Shown piece by piece: positions 37,542-43,705 of a stretch of DNA of 64,000 nt. Location of the stretch: NCBI GenBank assembly GCA_001773695.1, contig MEXN01000007.1:47388-111387 (forward strand), read 5' to 3'. Numbering within the stretch: position 1 is the stretch's first letter; every line of letters starts with the position of its first letter. The translations under genes and the position numbers were made by a program. The DNA comes from Candidatus Amesbacteria bacterium RIFCSPLOWO2_01_FULL_48_25. GTDB lineage: Bacteria; Patescibacteriota; Microgenomatia; CAZETR01; Amesbacteraceae. A model generated the notes under the pieces. It was not told the origin of the DNA. It did not search any database and saw nothing but the letters and a program-made list of their open reading frames with translations.

Positions 37542-39692
37542 ATGGCGGCGGGAGATATTAAGACTACAAATCGGGATGTGCCGTTGGATCGGGTGCGGAA
37601 TATTGGGATAATTGCCCATATCGATGCGGGGAAGACGACCACCACGGAGCGGATTTTATTTTATACCGGAAAGAGCTACAAAATCGGAGATATCGATGAG
37701 GGTGACACCCAAATGGATTGGATGGCGCAGGAAAGGGAGCGGGGAATTACGATCGTTTCGGCGGCAACGACGACATTCTGGACTGTGACCGACCCCAATT
37801 CCCCGGTGGGCAACGAATCGTTTAGGGTAAATATTATTGACACACCGGGACACGTGGACTTTACGGCGGAAGTAGAACGATCTTTGCGGGTATTGGACGG
37901 TGCGGTGACAGTACTAGATGCAGAGGAGACGGTGCAGTCACAAACTGAAACGGTATGGCGACAAGCTGATAAATACAAGGTTCCGCGGATTATTTTTGTG
38001 AATAAAAACGACAAACTGGGAGCCAATTTTGAGGGAACAGTTAAGGCTATTATCGAAAGACTAGGAGCAAACCCTGCAGTGATGGCATATCCTATTGGGG
38101 CTGAACAATCATTTCGCGGAGTAGTATTACTATTGGAAAAGAAGGCTTTGATTTGGCAGGGAGACGAGACGGGGGCAAAATTTACTGAAGAAGAAATACC
38201 GACTGACATGGCTGAAGTGGTAGAAAAGTGGCGGGCAAAACTAATTGAGCAGATTTGTGAAACGGATGACACTCTTTTAGAAAAATTTCTGGCGGGCGAA
38301 GAGCCGACCGTACCAGAGTTGAAAGCGGCAATGCGCCGGGCGGTAATTGCTTATAAATTGGTACCGGTCTATGCGGGCGCGTCATTACGCAACAAAGGAG
38401 TGCAGCCGATGCTGGATGCTATCGTAGAATACCTGCCCTCGCCTGTGGACATAGACCACGTCAAAGGAGTGGCGCCAACAACGGGTGAGACAGTTTTTCG
38501 AAAAACCGTGGTGGAGGAACCGTTTTCCGGGCTGGCTTTCAAAATCCAGACCGATCCGCATGTGGGAAGATTGACTTATGTGCGGATCTACTCCGGAAAA
38601 CTTTCGGCCGGGCAGTCGGTGTGGAATGCTTCCAAGCAGAAAGAAGAGCGGATCTCCCGGATGCTTCTCATGCATGCTAACAAGCGAGAAGAAATTGATG
38701 CGGCTTATGCGGGGGAAATCGTGGCCTTGGTCGGACTGAAAGAGGCAACAACGGGAAACACCCTATCCGACCGGAGTCACCCGATAATATTGGAGTCGAT
38801 AACATTTCCGGAGCCGGTAATCTCACTGGCCATCGAGCCCAAAACTAAATCCGACCAGGAAAAGATGGGGTATGCCCTAAACAAATTATCGGATGAAGAT
38901 CCGACGTTTAAGATCAAGACCAATCACGAGACTGGGCAGACGATCATATCCGGAATGGGGGAACTGCATCTGGAGATTATCGTGGACCGGATGAAGCGGG
39001 AGTTTTCTGTGGAGGCGGATACTGGGGCGCCCCAGGTGGCATATAAAGAGACTATTAAAAAGATGGCCGAGGGAGAGGGAAAATATATCCGTCAGTCCGG
39101 TGGGCGGGGGCAATATGGACATTGTTATATCCGGATTGAACCACAAACCCGGGGAGTTGGATATGAATTTGTGGATGCGATTAAAAGCGGGGCGATTCCG
39201 AATGAATTTATTCCGGCTGTAGAAAAGGGTGTGCGTGAAGCGATGGAGAATGGTGTACTGGCTGGGTTTCCGACTGTAGACATGAAGGTGACTTTGTACG
39301 ATGGGACTTATCACGACGTCGATTCCTCGGAAATGGCGTTTAAGATTGCCGGGTCGATGGCATTCCAGCATACGGCCAAAATAGCCGACCCAGTTTTGAT
39401 TGAGCCGGTAATGAAGGTGGAAGTATCCACCCCAAACCAGTTCATGGGAGACGTGATTGGGGACTTGTCCTCAAAAAGGGCCCAGATATTGGGAACGGAC
39501 AAGCGGGGGCATCTGACGATTATTAATGCCTATGTCCCCTTGGCCGAATTGTCCGGGTACGCGACGAAGTTACGGTCGCTGACCCAAGGGCGGGCGTCAT
39601 ATTATATGGAGCCGTCGCATTACGAAGAAGTGCCGCGAAACATTGCTGAGGGAATAATCGCCAAATCTGGTAAAATGGCTGCAAATGGCTGA
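37542..39692 (+). CDS. fusA: Elongation factor G
   Basis: 716 aa. [15 protein letters not shown] and DTPGHVDF. Ends with a TGA stop. Confidence 0.97.
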
Positions 39693-39885
39693 CTTGGTTA
39701 AAAAAAGGTTGACTCGGGGGACGGAGAAAAAATTGGTGGGGGTGTGCTCTGGTATTGGAGATTATTTGGGAGTTGATCCGGTGCTCGTTAGATTGGCATG
39801 GGTACTGATAACTGTGTTTACGGGAATATTTCCAGGGCTGATTGCCTACATACTGGCCGCTTGGGTGATGCCGGAAAAGAAGTAG
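39685..39885 (+). CDS. PspC-domain small membrane protein
   Basis: [49 protein letters not shown] matches the PspC N-terminal domain. The start overlaps the fusA stop. Confidence 0.6.
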
Positions 39886-39889
39886 AGGA

Positions 39890-40126
39890 CTAGGGCAGGT
39901 CAGTAAGAAAGACGTGAACCGCGGCTCCGGTAACAAGGGAGACACCTGGAACAGCGTAGTTGTCACCTCTGGCTTTCCAGAGTTCGAGTTGATCAGGGGT
40001 AATGTTGTGTAATCGGACTTCTTCTCCAGTTTTAATTATGATGACTGCGTGTTTTTCGGGAGGTAAAGCGGGAGAGCCGGCGCCACAACCAAAGCCTGGT
40101 CCTTCAATTCGAGACATCGGGGCCAA
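39890..40126 (-). CDS. Hypothetical protein
   Basis: 78-aa ORF. GFGCGAG near the N-terminus. No family recognised. Confidence 0.3.
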   Translation of the reverse strand: MAPMSRIEGPGFGCGAGSPALPPEKHAVIIIKTGEEVRLHNITPDQLELWKARGDNYAVPGVSLVTGAAVHVFLTDLP

Positions 40127-40180
40127 AAAAAAGAGCCGGGTGGCTCTTTGAAATAAAATAATTTGTCCAGGTAGTCATGA

Positions 40181-40570
40181 ATGGCTCCTGGGAGTAAAGT
40201 ATATCACATGAAGTGGAGCGATAGGTTTTGGGTGACAATGCTCGTTCTTCTGCCTTTAATCGGAGTGTATCGGATAGGATATTATTTTTGGTACCACAAG
40301 CAGGTAATTGTAAAACCCTTAGAAGGAGAGTGGAAAAACTATGGGAAATGTAAGAGGGATAGCGAGTGTGCAAAAACCGCTAACCCTAATTGCAGCGGGT
40401 GCGGGTGCGGGGTGTATATAAATCGAGAATCTTTAGGAAATTATATGGATCAACTTAAGAAACAGTGTCAGGGAGAGTCGGGGCAGGTGTGTTTCGGGGC
40501 AGTATGCCCACAAACCAATGCGGCGTGTATTGAGGGATATTGCGTGGGGAAGAGAATTGAGTCCCAGTAA
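40181..40570 (+). CDS. Cysteine-rich membrane-anchored/secreted small protein
   Basis: N-terminal signal-anchor FWVTMLVLLPLIGVY. 10 Cys in the C-terminal 70 aa (CKRDSECAKTANPNCSGCGCG...CIEGYCVG). Confidence 0.5.
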   Translation: MAPGSKVYHMKWSDRFWVTMLVLLPLIGVYRIGYYFWYHKQVIVKPLEGEWKNYGKCKRDSECAKTANPNCSGCGCGVYINRESLGNYMDQLKKQCQGESGQVCFGAVCPQTNAACIEGYCVGKRIESQ

Positions 40571-40621: not shown

Positions 40622-41800
40622 ATGGCGACATTTCAAAGAACCAAACCGCACGTCAACATCGGAACTATTGGTCATGTGGACCATGGGAAGACGACTTTAA
40701 CTTCGGCTATCACCATGGTTTTGGCCAAAAAGGGGATGGCGACTGCCAAAAAGTACGAGGACATTGATTCGGCACCGGAAGAAAGAGCCCGAGGAGTGAC
40801 GATTAATTTATCCCACCAGGAGTATGAGACGGAGAAGAGGCACTATGCCCACATCGATGCGCCGGGTCACGCCGACTACATCAAGAACATGATTACCGGA
40901 GCTGCCCAAATGGACGGGGCGATTTTGGTAGTATCTGCCGCGGATGGGCCTATGCCCCAGACCCGAGAGCATATTCTTTTGGCCAAGCAGGTGAATGTGC
41001 CGGCGATCGTAGTGTTTTTGAACAAATGCGATATGGTGGATGACGAGTCACTTTTGGATCTGGTCGAGATGGAAGTTAGGGAGCTACTGACTAAATACGG
41101 CTACAAGGGGGACGAAGTGCCCATAATCCGGGGATCGGCACTAAAGGCTACTGAGGGGGATGCCAAGTATGAAGAGAAAATAATTGAACTGATGAAGGCG
41201 GTCGATGAACACGTGCCAACTCCCGTACGGGAACTGGACAAGCCGTTTTTGATGCCGATTGAAGACGTGTTTTCTATTAAAGGCCGGGGGACGGTGGTAA
41301 CCGGCCGGATTGAGCGGGGCGTGGTCAAGCTAAACGAGACTATTGAAATTGTAGGAATTAAGGCTACTAAGTCGACGGTTGTAACCGGGGTAGAGATGTT
41401 TAGAAAGCAACTTGATGAGGGTCAGGCGGGAGACAATGTGGGAGTCTTGCTGCGCGGAATTGAAAAGGACGACGTGGAAAGAGGGCAAGTGCTAGCTAAG
41501 CCGGGGAGCATTACCCCGCACACCGAGTTTGAAGCCGAAGTGTACATCTTGAAGAAGGAAGAGGGTGGACGGCACACTTCTTTCTTCACTGGGTATAGGC
41601 CGCAGTTTTACATCCGGACAACGGATGTGACGGGCGAGGTGACCCTCGCTTCTGGCGTCGAGATGGTCATGCCCGGAGATAACGCCAAGATGAAAGTGAA
41701 GTTGATCGTGCCAGTCGCTATTGAAGAGGGATTGAGGTTTGCTATTCGCGAGGGCGGTAAAACCGTGGGTGCGGGAGTAGTGACCAAAATTATTAGTTAG
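40622..41800 (+). CDS. tuf: Elongation factor Tu
   Basis: Start placed at [27 protein letters not shown]. The track ORF begins at an upstream TTG. Confidence 0.97.
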
Positions 41801-41816
41801 TGCGTTGCTCTTTTAT

Positions 41817-42125
41817 ATGGCAAAGGGAAGACTGAGAGTCAGACTGAAGTCTTTTGACCACCGGGTCATAGATGAGGCGGTAGCCAAGATATTGGATGCC
41901 GCGATTTCCACAGGGGCAAAAGTTGTAGGCCCAATCCCCTTGCCAACAGATAGAAAACTGATGGCGGTAAATACCTCTCCGCATACGGATAAAGACGCTC
42001 GGGAACATTTTGAGATGTTGGTGCACAAGCGGTTGATTGACGTGGTCGACCCGACGCCGAAGACCATCGAAGCTCTTTCTAATCTGGATCTGCCAGCCGG
42101 AGTGGATATTGAAGTGAAGATGTAG
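41817..42125 (+). CDS. rpsJ: 30S ribosomal protein S10
   Basis: MAKGRLRVRLKSFDHRVIDEA... ATG at 41817. Confidence 0.92.
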   Translation: MAKGRLRVRLKSFDHRVIDEAVAKILDAAISTGAKVVGPIPLPTDRKLMAVNTSPHTDKDAREHFEMLVHKRLIDVVDPTPKTIEALSNLDLPAGVDIEVKM

Positions 42126-42134
42126 AATAAGATT

Positions 42135-42374
42135 ATGCCGGAATACGATGTGGTTGTAACTACGAATGGTAACTACGCAAAGGCCACTCTTGACGGTTTT
42201 GTTCTAACCGCTGCGGTCATAGACGGTGGAGTTGTAAAGAGGTTTTGGTTTGACGGAGCAACACTGAGGATGGAAACGCCTGATATTTCTCATGAGGTAG
42301 CGAAGGCTTTGATGTTGGGATTAAGACTTAATTCCCGAGTCACTAAAGTGGAACTCGAACCTAAAAGGGTTTGA
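42135..42374 (+). CDS. Hypothetical 79-aa protein inserted between rpsJ and rplC
   Basis: Intact ORF MPEYDVVVTTNGNYAKATLDGF... No family recognised. Confidence 0.4.
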   Translation: MPEYDVVVTTNGNYAKATLDGFVLTAAVIDGGVVKRFWFDGATLRMETPDISHEVAKALMLGLRLNSRVTKVELEPKRV

Positions 42375-42377
42375 TGG

Positions 42378-42407
42378 TTGGAAACTTTCGGGGAAATCTG
42401 GTATACT
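42378..42407 (+). promoter_or_regulatory. Putative sigma70-type promoter: TTGGAA, 18-nt spacer with TG, TATACT. Lies upstream of the rplC leader.
   Basis: -35 TTGGAA at 42378-42383. TG at 42399-42400. -10 TATACT at 42402-42407. Confidence 0.3.
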
Positions 42408-42482
42408 GGGTTCACTGTGGGCAGAGAGAATTGCCAGACTATTGCTCCGGTACCGTAAGGTTGGCTAGGTAAGTTTTTATAT

Positions 42483-42504
42483 AGCGCCGACGGGCGCTTT
42501 TTTT
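42483..42504 (+). terminator. Intrinsic terminator or attenuator hairpin (AGCGCC-GACG-GGCGCT followed by TTTTTTT), 14 nt upstream of the rplC ATG
   Basis: Perfect 6-bp GC-rich stem, 4-nt loop, 7-T tract. Lies within an approximately 100-nt leader. Confidence 0.55.
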
Positions 42505-42518
42505 GACCGAAAACATAA

Positions 42519-43082
42519 ATGAACACCATATTTGCCAAAAAAATTGGAATGACTGGAAAATATACCCCTGACCGGGCGAGGGTGGGAGTAACAACGTTAC
42601 GGGTATTTCCAACTACGGTTGTGGGGTTAAGAACTAAGGACAAACATGGTTATGAGGCGGTGGTGGTCAAGTCACAAGTCACAAGTCACAAGTCACAGCT
42701 GCGGGAAATAAGGACCGGGGAGAAAATGGAGCCGGGGACGGAGATAAAATTGGAGGAGGTCTTAAAAGTCGGGGACGTGGTAAGAGTGGCTGGGATAAGC
42801 AAGGGAAAGGGATTTGCGGGAGTGGTAAAGAGGCACGGGTTTGCCGGGGGTCCCAGAACCCATGGACAATCTGACCGGGAGCGGGCGCCGGGATCGAGTG
42901 GGTCGACCACCACTCCGGGGAGAGTTTACAAAGGAAAGAGACGGGCGGGAAGAATGGGAAATGAAAGAATAAGCGTAAAGGGTCTTAAGGTTTTGGAAGT
43001 TGACACACAGAATAACTTGTTGACAATTATTGGGTCAGTGCCGGGAAGCCGCGGGGGGCAATTGGAGGTAAGCCGGATATGA
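42519..43082 (+). CDS. rplC: 50S ribosomal protein L3
   Basis: KKIGMTGKY... and GKGFAGVVKRHGF motifs. Confidence 0.95.
   Translation: MNTIFAKKIGMTGKYTPDRARVGVTTLRVFPTTVVGLRTKDKHGYEAVVVKSQVTSHKSQLREIRTGEKMEPGTEIKLEEVLKVGDVVRVAGISKGKGFAGVVKRHGFAGGPRTHGQSDRERAPGSSGSTTTPGRVYKGKRRAGRMGNERISVKGLKVLEVDTQNNLLTIIGSVPGSRGGQLEVSRI
42668..42698 (+). repeat. Perfect tandem heptanucleotide repeat (CAAGTCA)x4 inside rplC
   Basis: Read directly: tcaagtcacaagtcacaagtcacaagtcacag. Encodes QVTSHKSQ. Confidence 0.95.
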
Positions 43083-43705
43083 TTAGCGCAGGAAGTATTA
43101 ATTGGAAAGGAGAAGCCGGGGAAAAGATCACTTTACCCAAGGCTGTGTTTGAAGCGAAGGTCTCTCCTACTCTTTTGGCCCAAGCTCAGAGAGTGTACTT
43201 GGCAAACCAGAGGAAAGCTAGGGCCCGGACTAAAACCCGGGGGGAAGTGGAGGGATCGACCCGCAAAATCTACAGACAAAAAGGTACTGGGGGAGCGAGG
43301 CATGGCTCGATCAGAGCGCCAATTTTTGTAGGTGGAGGAATTTCCCACGGGCCGACGGGAGGACAAAATTATATACTGAAAATGCCGCGAAAAATGGGGT
43401 CGACGGCGCTTCTGGGGGCATTGGCTGATCGAGCGGCTTCTAAAAGAATAGTCGTCGTGACTGGCCTGAAGCTGCCGGAAAAAACCAAGGCGGCATCTTC
43501 GATGTGGAAGAAGGCAAAATTGGAAAAAGGGGCCCTTTTGGTAATATCCGACAAAGAGATGGCGGGGAGGAAGAGTTTTAGAAATTTGAAAGATGTGGAG
43601 GTAGCGCTGGCTTCTAGTTTAAACCCGTACGAGGTGCTTGGTTGTAAGCAATTAGTTATTTCTCAGGCTGCGATTGAGGCTCTTTCTAAAAGATATGTTA
43701 ATTAG
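43079..43705 (+). CDS. rplD: 50S ribosomal protein L4
   Basis: 208 aa, L4 family, overlaps rplC by 4 nt. Confidence 0.92.
   Translation: MISAGSINWKGEAGEKITLPKAVFEAKVSPTLLAQAQRVYLANQRKARARTKTRGEVEGSTRKIYRQKGTGGARHGSIRAPIFVGGGISHGPTGGQNYILKMPRKMGSTALLGALADRAASKRIVVVTGLKLPEKTKAASSMWKKAKLEKGALLVISDKEMAGRKSFRNLKDVEVALASSLNPYEVLGCKQLVISQAAIEALSKRYVN

Follow-up and report, generated by a model that had tools for sequence, protein, structure and literature searches.

A conserved pseudoknot-containing leader with a terminator-like hairpin, a candidate attenuator upstream of rplC in Amesbacteria-like CPR bacteria

Results

Organization of the rpsJ-rplC region

We analysed a stretch of 64 kb (hereafter, the window) from the genome of a groundwater bacterium of the Amesbacteria (CPR). 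Here, rpsJ is followed in order by a small ORF (ORF79), a promoter, a leader, a hairpin with seven U and rplC, with these features:

41817-42125, + strand: rpsJ, ribosomal protein S10 (102 aa; Pfam PF00338, E=3e-31)
42135-42374, + strand: ORF79, an orphan of 79 aa (hypothetical protein A2634_00605 at NCBI), located after the rpsJ stop and ahead of the leader promoter
42378-42383, + strand: -35-like hexamer TTGGAA, with a spacer of 18 nt, common to this genome and species B alone (the second lineage containing ORF79)
42399-42407, + strand: extended -10 element TGgTATACT (TATACT at 42402-42407; family consensus TGnTAnnAT)
42412-42504, + strand: match to the whole-leader covariance model R1 (88.1 bits, E=6.5e-16)
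42483-42504, + strand: terminator-like hairpin plus U7 (AGCGCC at 42483-42488, loop GACG, GGCGCT at 42493-42498; T run at 42498-42504)
42519-43082, + strand: rplC, ribosomal protein L3 (187 aa; Pfam PF00297)

The rpsJ gene is the final conserved gene of a fusA-tuf-rpsJ run, and S10 in the relatives has 102 aa and the N-terminus MAKGRLRV. The long L3-L4-L23-L2-S19-L22-S3... operon begins with rplC, whose product is identical to L3 from Candidatus Amesbacteria bacterium RIFCSPHIGHO2_01_FULL_48_32; its ATG sits 14 nt past the U run and we found no Shine-Dalgarno sequence for it. An earlier note on this DNA had placed a small ORF between S10 and L3, and a leader of approximately 100 nt ahead of rplC; both were borne out, the first as an orphan of 79 aa and the second with a length of about 95-105 nt.

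ORF79 occupies an insertion hot spot

Homologues of ORF79 form only two clusters among 5.8e9 proteins; a full HMMER search retrieved none beyond these, and no Pfam model matched at E≤1, including that for Pentapeptide repeats. Residues 17-46 show a weak periodicity of five residues and align to repeat proteins at E~1e-5, although the resemblance is only one of low complexity and, with no Pfam match, we rejected ORF79 as a pentapeptide-repeat protein. Its AlphaFold model is of low confidence (pLDDT 45.6) and unsuitable for a fold search.

In comparisons with species B, dS was 0.24 for ORF79 (dN/dS 0.47) and 1.93 for tuf. The ORF is missing from seven compact relatives, where the leader -10 begins right past the rpsJ stop codon, and the gap between rpsJ and the leader contains, in other relatives, unrelated small ORFs or an IS30-type transposase, with no homology detected by BLASTP among the different inserted ORFs. 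ORF79 is a recent, lineage-specific acquisition, and the stretch from the rpsJ stop to the -10 element is an insertion hot spot. The -10 of the seven lineages without ORF79 starts at -3 to +4 nt relative to the rpsJ stop, indicating that the leader is older than the ORF. The suggestion that the promoter and the terminator were part of the inserted ORF had to be abandoned, because relatives without the ORF carry both directly after the rpsJ stop; ORF79 is external to the leader device and owns neither of them.

An extended -10 promoter precedes the leader

The promoter matches the consensus at 9 of 12 positions and includes the TG (promoter scan), with a predicted transcription start at around 42414. 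This match by itself is not above chance, and 18 kb contained 31 promoter-like sites versus 20.8 ± 4.4 in shuffled sequences. We nevertheless accepted the promoter and the hairpin as real because they are conserved in homologous leaders. Each of the 17 scanned leaders contains the motif TGnTAnnAT at 12-21 nt before an RGCR motif that lies within the first helix of the RNA (P1, see below), and TGnTAnnAT is also readable in L198-L200. This TGnTATAAT-like element at a fixed distance from a conserved RNA corresponds, at the sequence level, to a sigma-70 extended -10 promoter. The promoter had previously been given as TTGGAA-N18(TG)-TATACT: its extended -10 is conserved across leaders, whereas TTGGAA is confined to the lineages that carry ORF79, the sequence at the -35 position being different in the others.

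The leader is conserved and exclusively linked to rplC

We found 19 distinct homologous leaders, all of them immediately upstream of rplC. The structural alignment, scans and folding took in 17 of these; the other two, L199 and L200, were added later and read by eye from their sequence. The leader was present in the eight informative L3 relatives (8/8; 59-72% identity), which were picked on protein similarity alone. Conservation of the leader, whose absence had been singled out beforehand as refuting an attenuator, is therefore evident. A segment of around 50 nt ahead of the terminator hardly varies even though the L3 proteins of these lineages are only 59-72% identical and, at the DNA level, the core from the promoter to the second helix (P2) is 91.5% identical to that of species B, as compared to 66% for rplC and 77% for rpsJ. 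With model R1, the leader motif is single copy within the window, and none of 96 pattern hits placed it in any other context. It is therefore a conserved structured RNA that in several lineages precedes the same ribosomal protein gene, as part of its 5' UTR, as are ribosomal protein leaders in general.

Searching the whole window with Rfam 15 at gathering thresholds yielded no matches, and positions 42000-42700 gave only chance-level matches at E≤10. Comparison with L4-responsive leaders, likewise through Rfam, revealed no homology. The motifs described by Eckert and Weinberg in 2020 are reportedly included among the Rfam models.

A contig scan with L3 retrieved mostly distant phyla, and was used as a negative set, yet it exposed a common layout. 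The succession of rpsJ stop, extended -10, leader of ~95 nt, terminator and rplC recurs with unrelated leader sequences in L004 (Woesebacteria), L001 and L015. Locus L028 shows a comparable layout and also an unrelated leader, the end of rpsJ not being recognisable in the stretch read, and L054 contains, by eye, a terminator-like hairpin upstream of rplC. Across all phyla, a scan located a strong hairpin plus U run within 150 nt of rplC in 4 of 77 loci, one of which, L031 (Levybacteria), has no evident promoter. The occurrence of divergent sensor sequences in a fixed layout among neighbouring lineages suggests repeated replacement of ribosomal protein leaders.

Predicted fold of the leader

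Three structural elements were deduced upstream of the terminator:

42419-42447, + strand: helix P1 (GGGCA at 42419-42423 pairs with UGCUC at 42443-42447; RNAalifold consensus)
42433-42465, + strand: pseudoknot helix P2, 5 bp (GCCAG at 42433-42437, in the P1 loop, pairs with UUGGC at 42461-42465)
42466-42482, + strand: P3, a variable AU-rich linker or hairpin (from sequences and constrained folds)

Helix P1 has 5-6 bp across leaders and encloses a conserved purine loop (GAGAGAAUU, 42424-42432), the 5' strand of P2 and ACUAU (42438-42442), and a variable loop (CGGUACCGUAAGG, 42448-42460) lies between the P2 strands. P3 forms a clear AU hairpin of 5-9 bp in most relatives but only a weak one here (GCUA...UAGC). 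The five P1 pairs are each formed in 17/17 leaders, with alternative bases that include AU 15, GU 1 and GC 1 at one pair and AU 14 and GU 3 at another (RNAalifold). In P2, pair 4 is AU in nine leaders and UA in six, and pair 5 is AU, GC and GU in three each and CG in one. Pair counts were made on spliced segments of fixed length, because the MAFFT and covariance-model alignments mis-registered the 3' strand of P2. For P1 and P2 together, 90.9% of cells pair versus 85.6 ± 1.3 in shuffles (0/500), dropping to 23-48% in slid registers, and there were 11 double-sided changes versus 5.1 ± 1.8 in shuffles (0/500); these values come with the register of the P2 3' strand picked to maximise pairing, and the support for P2 consists of few independent changes among related sequences. 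The leader structure as a whole covaries, also with few independent events in related sequences, and RNAalifold independently recovers P1 and the terminator with compensatory pairs. Folded as a single sequence, the leader is not more stable than shuffles (z +0.59 and +1.24) and its minimum free energy structure misses P1. Two single-stranded loops of the leader, GAGARA and UUAK, are conserved.

We also looked for mimicry of ribosomal RNA. The leader profile gave no nhmmer match to E. coli 16S, 23S or 5S rRNA, and the best local Smith-Waterman scores against the E. coli rRNAs equalled the shuffle mean. The recurring best match, 23S 2757-2806, was rejected for its different structural context, with AGCAC forming there the 3' strand of a local hairpin; likewise, the sole GAGARA in E. 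coli rRNA (23S 1649) is in a long-range helix and not in a loop, and resemblances to 23S ~356-480 and ~2290 were at chance level.

The terminator and the search for an antiterminator

The hairpin before rplC contains 6 pairs, five of them GC (-10.9 kcal/mol), and is a GC-rich stem-loop followed directly by a U tract, which on sequence grounds makes it a putative intrinsic terminator. A hairpin and a U run are present in 19/19 variants, with -5.9 to -12.2 kcal/mol and U5-8 in the 17 that were folded, and an equivalent hairpin plus U7 visible in the sequences of L199 and L200. The stem shows compensatory changes in the 17-sequence alignment, one pair being CG in ten leaders, UA in four and UG in three. 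The terminator described in the earlier note, AGCGCC-GACG-GGCGCT plus T7 at 14 nt before the rplC ATG, is thus confirmed, with a stem that covaries in relatives. Such hairpins are scarce: the window contains, on both strands, only seven hairpin plus U6 sites of comparable strength, and our scan found no further terminator between tuf and rplC. Across leaders, the hairpin and U run end 0-16 nt before the rplC ATG, and therefore all rplC transcription must pass through the hairpin; there is no room for another promoter between the leader and rplC.

Truncated and constrained folds indicated that the 3' strand of P2 is able to pair with the 5' arm of the terminator, around P3. In a partner-swap test of this pairing, the cognate energy was -6.29 kcal/mol versus -5.96 ± 0.32 kcal/mol for swapped partners (783/5000), which is not significant. 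The proposed check for alternative antiterminator pairings therefore provided this one candidate, unsupported by co-variation, and neither the folds nor the partner-swap test revealed a conserved antiterminator in the leader. Complementarity of the P2 3' strand to rplC codons 5-7 (GCCAA) was rejected because the wobble base varies, with GCT in several relatives.

Discussion

A putative attenuator of the rplC operon

Conservation, exclusive linkage to rplC, the promoter motif and the covariation of P1, P2 and the terminator are observed. On this basis we propose, with confidence that is about evenly balanced, that the element acts in cis as the leader of the rplC operon in an Amesbacteria-like CPR clade, with its pseudoknot as a putative ribosomal protein site and acting as an attenuator; it is possibly also a translational operator for rplC. 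Transcription would start from the extended -10 (TGnTAnnAT) and the first ~50 nt of the RNA would fold into P1, the loop of which would pair with the downstream GGC segment to create the pseudoknot P2; the variable AU hairpin would follow and then the short GC hairpin with its U run, ending 0-16 nt before the rplC start. The pseudoknot domain would be the binding site for a ribosomal protein encoded in the rplC operon which, when in excess over rRNA, would bind the nascent leader and increase termination at an otherwise leaky hairpin and U run, in the manner of L4 acting with NusA in E. coli. The bound protein may also block initiation at the adjacent AUG, which lacks a Shine-Dalgarno sequence, and transcripts reading in from tuf-rpsJ, or from any gene inserted there, would meet the identical gate. 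That regulation runs in this direction, and that the terminator is leaky, we infer.

A known counterpart is the S10 operon of E. coli, which L4 controls via termination in the leader and inhibition of translation (PMC3616713). Both leaders precede the L3, L4, L23, L2... operon genes and have a hairpin with a U stretch inside the leader and near the first start codon, in our case in 19/19 variants. The E. coli leader has no classical antiterminator, and its control depends on structured RNA ahead of the terminator hairpin (PMC3616713). However, it is the 5' UTR of rpsJ, the first gene of its operon, whereas the Amesbacteria element is located past rpsJ, or past ORF79, and directly before rplC (19/19). 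The E. coli leader consists of ~170 nt with five hairpins (HA-HE), a conserved HD loop and HG overlapping the S10 start; that of Amesbacteria has ~95 nt with P1, the hairpin-loop pseudoknot P2, a variable hairpin and the terminator, and nothing in it overlaps the start codon. The E. coli S10 leader is also confined to Gammaproteobacteria and shows no detectable homology of sequence or structure to ours. Of the idea that this leader is the equivalent of the L4 control point, moved to rplC, we therefore keep the function and not the descent: most likely, it would be an attenuator that resembles the E. coli L4/S10 leader by analogy and not by homology. L4 is put forward as ligand purely from precedent, and L3 would be the next candidate.

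Other leaders offer partial parallels. A candidate leader of Archaeoglobi lies directly upstream of rplC-rplD-rplW-rplB, as ours does, with L4 as ligand presumed only by precedent (PMC7247131; Eckert and Weinberg 2020); that one is archaeal, whereas here there are a bacterial extended -10 and an intrinsic terminator, and no Rfam match. The candidate S10 leader of Firmicutes/Clostridia belongs to the equivalent gene cluster (PMC7247131), although it is situated upstream of rpsJ, unlike the rplC-adjacent leader of Amesbacteria, which Rfam does not match to it. In the B. subtilis infC leader, transcription attenuation depends on L20 (PMC1865079), and the parallel to our candidate is a leader terminator under the control of a ribosomal protein from the operon itself, in a bacterium outside the Gammaproteobacteria; that leader has ~200 nt, mutually exclusive terminator and antiterminator structures and clear 23S mimicry, whereas we found here neither a conserved antiterminator nor mimicry of E. 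coli rRNA. No ribosomal protein leader is described for CPR/Patescibacteria in the literature searched or in Rfam.

Alternative explanations

An unlikely alternative is constitutive punctuation without sensing: the hairpin would be a partly efficient terminator of the strongly expressed fusA-tuf-rpsJ transcript and its inserts, the -10 an internal top-up promoter, and the fold would stabilise or process the 5' end. This would agree with the lack of another terminator between tuf and rplC and of a conserved antiterminator, with hairpins short and moderate enough for a fixed partial read-through, with the need for EF-Tu in excess over ribosomal proteins, and with other CPR loci retaining the layout and not the leader sequence. 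It leaves unexplained, however, why ~50 near-invariant nt and a pseudoknot should be kept by compensatory changes while L3 diverges to 59-72% identity, and a promoter upstream of the terminator of its own operon would be wasteful unless termination is conditional.

We consider it improbable that the element is an independent small RNA gene of ~90 nt, acting in trans or with a housekeeping role, and that rplC is expressed by read-through. It does form a complete promoter-to-terminator unit of small RNA size, and GAGARA and UUAK could serve as seed; yet it is always 0-16 nt from rplC, with one copy in the window and none elsewhere among the pattern hits, it matches no Rfam family, SRP, 6S and tmRNA included, and the long hairpin expected of SRP RNA does not form.

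Slightly less probable still is a riboswitch-like pseudoknot aptamer for, e.g., an alarmone, Mg2+ or a nucleotide, gating the ribosomal protein operon via the terminator. The anatomy is typical of riboswitches, with a terminator preceded by a compact pseudoknot (H-type, ~50 nt) whose loop nucleotides are invariant, and the ability of the P2 3' strand to pair alternatively with the 5' arm of the terminator would make a switch possible. Nevertheless, no known class matches in Rfam, the variable hairpin separates the aptamer from the terminator, the alternative pairing is not conserved, and the motif is linked only to rplC, while riboswitches mostly lie ahead of metabolic or transport genes.

We give very little credence to attenuation by a leader peptide, in which translation of a near-leaderless ORF from an NUG before P1 (42417-42458, MGRENCQTIAPVP and a stop) would remodel the leader. 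A GUG, AUG or UUG with an open frame of 8-13 codons exists in 17/17 variants (L199 and L200 aside), and the variants nearest to this genome end in Pro-stop. However, GAG/GAA is the sole synonymous variation in codons 2-6 (AGC AGA GAR AAU UGC), pointing to constraint on the RNA and not on the peptide; subclades read through the invariant UGCUC in different frames, the position of the stop varies and is 25-55 nt before the terminator, beyond the reach of the ribosome, and an A-to-G change in codon 3 of L100 is compensated outside the ORF. Equally improbable is a BoxA-like loading site for NusB/S10 that would render RNA polymerase termination-resistant for the long operon. In its favour, one subclade has AUAAC after the invariant UGCUC, a combination similar to the rrn BoxA (UGCUCUUUAACAA), and the element adjoins the S10/NusE gene. 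Against it, UGCUC forms the 3' side of P1, where it and its partner change together (CGCUC/GAGCG in L100), whereas BoxA is bound as a single strand, and the bases that follow in the subclade of this genome (CGGUACC, CAGAACC) are unlike BoxA.

Significance

The attenuator reading would also admit an extended version, which we think doubtful: a three-state pseudoknot switch, responding to a signal other than L4 and gating a ribosomal protein super-operon of ~25 genes, with swappable sensors in CPR and the gap after rpsJ as a landing pad. If so, the pseudoknot would hold the GGC strand off the 5' arm of the terminator, and the free GGC strand would be the antiterminator; the signal would be L3, another ribosomal protein or a small molecule. 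CPR lineages would then have fitted a number of unrelated sensor domains, this leader among them, to one constant framework: rpsJ stop, extended -10, leader, terminator, rplC. In the landing pad, orphan or mobile small genes would obtain free high-level expression from tuf-rpsJ, with the leader terminator insulating the operon.

In this lineage, rpsJ would belong transcriptionally with tuf and the ribosomal protein operon would start at rplC, as it does in archaea. With its short length (~95 nt) and defined helices, the leader of the rplC operon is a concrete RNA to assay with recombinant proteins of the operon, L3 and L4 among them. The hot spot of unrelated orphan ORFs, in turn, constitutes a small natural experiment in gene insertion beside an essential operon.

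An orphan gene between rpsJ and a conserved rplC leader

Reading of the window found every sequence element described in the earlier note, and the splitting of the rpsJ-rplC linkage by an inserted orphan gene, here ORF79, was borne out. The junction is organized as follows.

ends 42125, + strand: rpsJ, S10 by Pfam
42135-42374, + strand: ORF79, 79 codons, no Pfam family
42378-42383, + strand: -35-like TTGGAA, followed by an 18-nt spacer with TGg at its end
42402-42407, + strand: -10 TATACT, read from the sequence
42483-42498, + strand: terminator-like hairpin AGCGCC-GACG-GGCGCT, with a 7-T run to 42504
42519, + strand: rplC ATG, 14 nt past the T run, L3 by Pfam

Both L3 and ORF79 have exact counterparts in a CPR/Microgenomates MAG from Rifle groundwater, Candidatus Amesbacteria bacterium RIFCSPHIGHO2_01_FULL_48_32, in which ORF79 is annotated as hypothetical protein A2634_00605. 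Taken alone, the promoter and hairpin signals carry little weight: the enrichment of promoter-like sites over shuffles is only mild (31 versus 20.8 ± 4.4, over 18 kb), the leader folds no more stably than its shuffled versions do (z +0.59 and +1.24), and an Rfam search returned no match for it.

We found the same leader directly behind rpsJ in relatives without ORF79, which contradicts the view that promoter and terminator belong to the inserted gene. Among relatives picked by L3 similarity alone (59–72% identity), the leader was present in 8 of 8 informative loci, while the ninth, L098, has an N-run precisely at the expected site. This locus is from Candidatus Amesbacteria RIFCSPLOWO2_02_FULL_48_11 (about 1400-1500) and carries a duplicated rpsJ 3'-end fragment just before the N-run, suggesting an assembly break at the variable rpsJ-rplC junction. 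The -10 starts from -3 to +4 nt relative to the rpsJ stop in seven lineages. Since ORF79-less relatives have the -10 at the rpsJ stop, where other lineages have unrelated insertions, we assign promoter and terminator to a conserved rplC leader, which by these comparisons is older than ORF79.

A degenerate-pattern scan of metagenome contigs, most of whose matches were due to chance, added further variants, giving 19 distinct leader sequences, each with an L3 gene immediately downstream. Searching with a covariance model detects the leader once in the window, at 42412-42504 with 88 bits, and made no convincing match in 80 loci from other phyla, Woesebacteria and Levybacteria. In one relative, L174, the model gives a weak second match at the tuf-rpsJ junction (542-626; 23 bits, E=0.044), which is probably spurious.

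Anatomy of the leader

The extended -10, TGnTAnnAT, occurs in all 17 scanned variants, ending 12–21 nt upstream of an RGCR motif within helix P1, and is also readable in L198-L200. The -35 is not conserved among variants; in compact relatives, without an inserted ORF, TTGAAG can be read within the last rpsJ codons, 17 nt upstream. P1 is a 5-bp helix (GGGCA, 42419-42423, with UGCUC, 42443-42447) that RNAalifold predicts independently, as it does the terminator stem (pair types CG 10, UA 4, UG 3); the P1 pairs are all retained in 17/17 sequences, with AU, GU and GC variation. Its loop contains a nearly invariant GAGARANUU followed by GCC, which together with the next two bases (42433-42437) pairs with a downstream GGC segment (42461-42465), forming pseudoknot P2.

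When 17 distinct variants are spliced into a gap-free alignment, P1 and P2 have 90.9% of cells paired, versus 85.6 ± 1.3 in shuffles (0/500) and 23–48% in slid registers, and show 11 double-sided changes versus 5.1 ± 1.8 in shuffles (0/500), although these counts come from related sequences with few independent events and from a GGC register selected for maximal pairing. The fourth P2 pair is AU in 9 variants and UA in 6, and the fifth is AU (3), GC (3), GU (3) or CG (1). Downstream lie P3, a variable AU-rich hairpin, and the GC terminator hairpin of 5–8 bp (-5.9 to -12.2 kcal/mol), followed by U5-8. The rplC ATG starts 0–16 nt past the U run, without a Shine-Dalgarno sequence in any variant; such sequences are sparse genome-wide anyway (about 17 of 73 crude ORFs).

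ORF79 and the insertion hot spot

Only two clusters of ORF79 homologues, with 97% and 81% identity, were found among 5.8 billion proteins, and HMMER, run in full against 1.8 billion representatives, added only low-complexity matches to pentapeptide-repeat proteins. Its AlphaFold model is unreliable (pLDDT 45.6). Compared with the 81% homologue, from a second ORF79-bearing lineage (species B, loci L081-L090), ORF79 shows dS 0.24 and dN/dS 0.47, versus 1.93 and 0.02 for the adjacent tuf. The far lower dS indicates that the common ancestor of ORF79 is much younger than the split of the genomes, and points to horizontal exchange or recombination; on these values, ORF79 is a recent passenger, only weakly constrained at the protein level.

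Species B contains an additional 87-aa ORF. In L082, L085 and L086 a 327-aa IS30-type transposase (HTH_38, rve; minus strand), missing from L081, L083 and L084, lies between this 87/88-aa ORF and ORF79. A 1394-nt metagenome contig, L091, is 99.5% identical to window 41700-43093, and its 7 differences all fall inside ORF79 nt 200-232, where it has the species B residues (VELRPKKV), as if a short tract had been exchanged by recombination between co-occurring populations.

In eight of the tabulated lineages, 212–1610 nt are inserted exactly between the rpsJ stop and the leader -10, and all these insertions contain ORFs save that of L092 (212 nt, no ORF of at least 40 aa). Another Amesbacteria locus, L198, has a 126-aa ORF at this junction. 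The inserted ORFs (72, 79, 83, 87, 90 and 153 aa, plus a transposase) are unrelated to each other, and the junction is an insertion hot spot. Some otherwise unrelated inserted ORFs start alike, with MPEYD (ORF79), MPKYE (87 aa, L180) and MPEYS (137 aa, L128), and the start region of ORF79 (window 42126-42150) shares with that of the L180 ORF a 9-nt AATA-type spacer behind the rpsJ stop; the likeness may come from a junction that they have in common or from a context for translational coupling.

Extra genes also occur in the fusA-tuf spacer (window 39685-40570): a 66-aa PspC-domain ORF overlapping the fusA stop and a 129-aa ORF ending exactly at the annotated tuf ORF start, which by eye is Cys-rich with a hydrophobic N terminus and has no convincing Pfam family. 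A palindromic GC hairpin lies between A8 and T8 at 40122-40149. The corresponding spacer of L092 contains a different 73-aa ORF on the minus strand, indicating that several junctions of the conserved cluster accept insertions. Inside rplC, a perfect 7-nt tandem repeat (CAAGTCA x4.3, window 42668-42697) encodes KSQVTSHKSQ, in an L3 loop of variable length among relatives; a single unit more or less would put this essential gene out of frame.

Possible function of the leader

The space between U run and rplC is too short for a promoter, so expression of the entire operon requires reading through the hairpin. A conserved promoter upstream of a conserved pseudoknot and terminator, linked exclusively to an r-protein operon, is the architecture of an autoregulatory attenuation r-leader, the reading we favour: an r-protein from the operon would enhance termination at the leader hairpin, and the adjacent rplC AUG might in addition be occluded. 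Protein-enhanced termination is favoured by two precedents. On the Escherichia coli S10 leader L4 acts in two ways, raising termination together with NusA and, separately, inhibiting translation (PMC3616713), and in Archaeoglobi a candidate leader upstream of rplC has been assigned to L4 by precedent (PMC7247131); L4 is likewise our leading candidate ligand, with L3 second. The attenuator suggested earlier thus stands as the best explanation of the conserved leader, which is an analogue of the E. coli L4/S10 leader from outside that family. Similarity of the leader to rRNA was at chance level in a comparison with E. coli rRNA.

As to the antiterminator pairing raised in the earlier note, a candidate was found: transcripts cut before the terminator 3' arm tend to fold with the P2 GGC strand paired, around P3, to the GCC of the terminator 5' arm, and P2 would then be, hypothetically, an anti-antiterminator. 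The partner-swap test was unsupportive, with no advantage of cognate partners (-6.29 versus -5.96 ± 0.32 kcal/mol swapped; 783/5000), and four variants pair weakly.

Constitutive punctuation, in which an insulating partial terminator is combined with an internal promoter, accounts for the layout but leaves the conserved pseudoknot unexplained. A metabolite riboswitch is conceivable but unsupported. Translation of a short ORF from an NUG before P1 was also considered. An equivalent frame of 8–13 codons exists in 17/17 variants examined; in the window (42417-42458, GUG...UAA, MGRENCQTIAPVP and stop) it begins 2–3 nt from where transcription is predicted to start, and it overlaps both P1 and P2. 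However, the codons of this ORF show no synonymous variation, subclades differ in its frame, and a long distance separates its stop from the terminator; we judge it a by-product of RNA conservation. Reading UGCUC as BoxA-like conflicts with its covariation as a helix strand, and the constant placement 0–16 nt from rplC, together with the lack of copies elsewhere, makes a stand-alone sRNA unlikely.

A wider pattern in CPR bacteria

We conclude that the rplC leader is a conserved, previously undescribed element that probably belongs among r-protein leaders. Of 77 loci from across the phyla, only 4 have a strong hairpin with U run within 150 nt of rplC. The layout of rpsJ stop, TGnTAnnAT, leader of about 95 nt, terminator and rplC is repeated, with unrelated leader sequences, in other loci of the genome scan, among them one from Woesebacteria and several from MAGs that have the L3 most similar to that of the window. 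The full layout (extended -10, leader of about 95 nt, GC hairpin with U run, rplC) occurs in L001, L015 and the Woesebacteria locus L004, with the -10 at the rpsJ stop in the first two; L028 has promoter and hairpin with U run, the latter about 90 nt ahead of the ATG, whereas L054 and the Levybacteria locus L031 have only a terminator-like hairpin, with no evident promoter in L031. L001, L015, L028 and L054 are titled 'uncultured Gammaproteobacteria', yet their L3 sequences are among the closest in the collection to the CPR L3 of the window. The leader described here is thus one of several sequence families that follow a more general CPR habit, in which the r-protein operon begins at rplC behind a terminator-containing leader.
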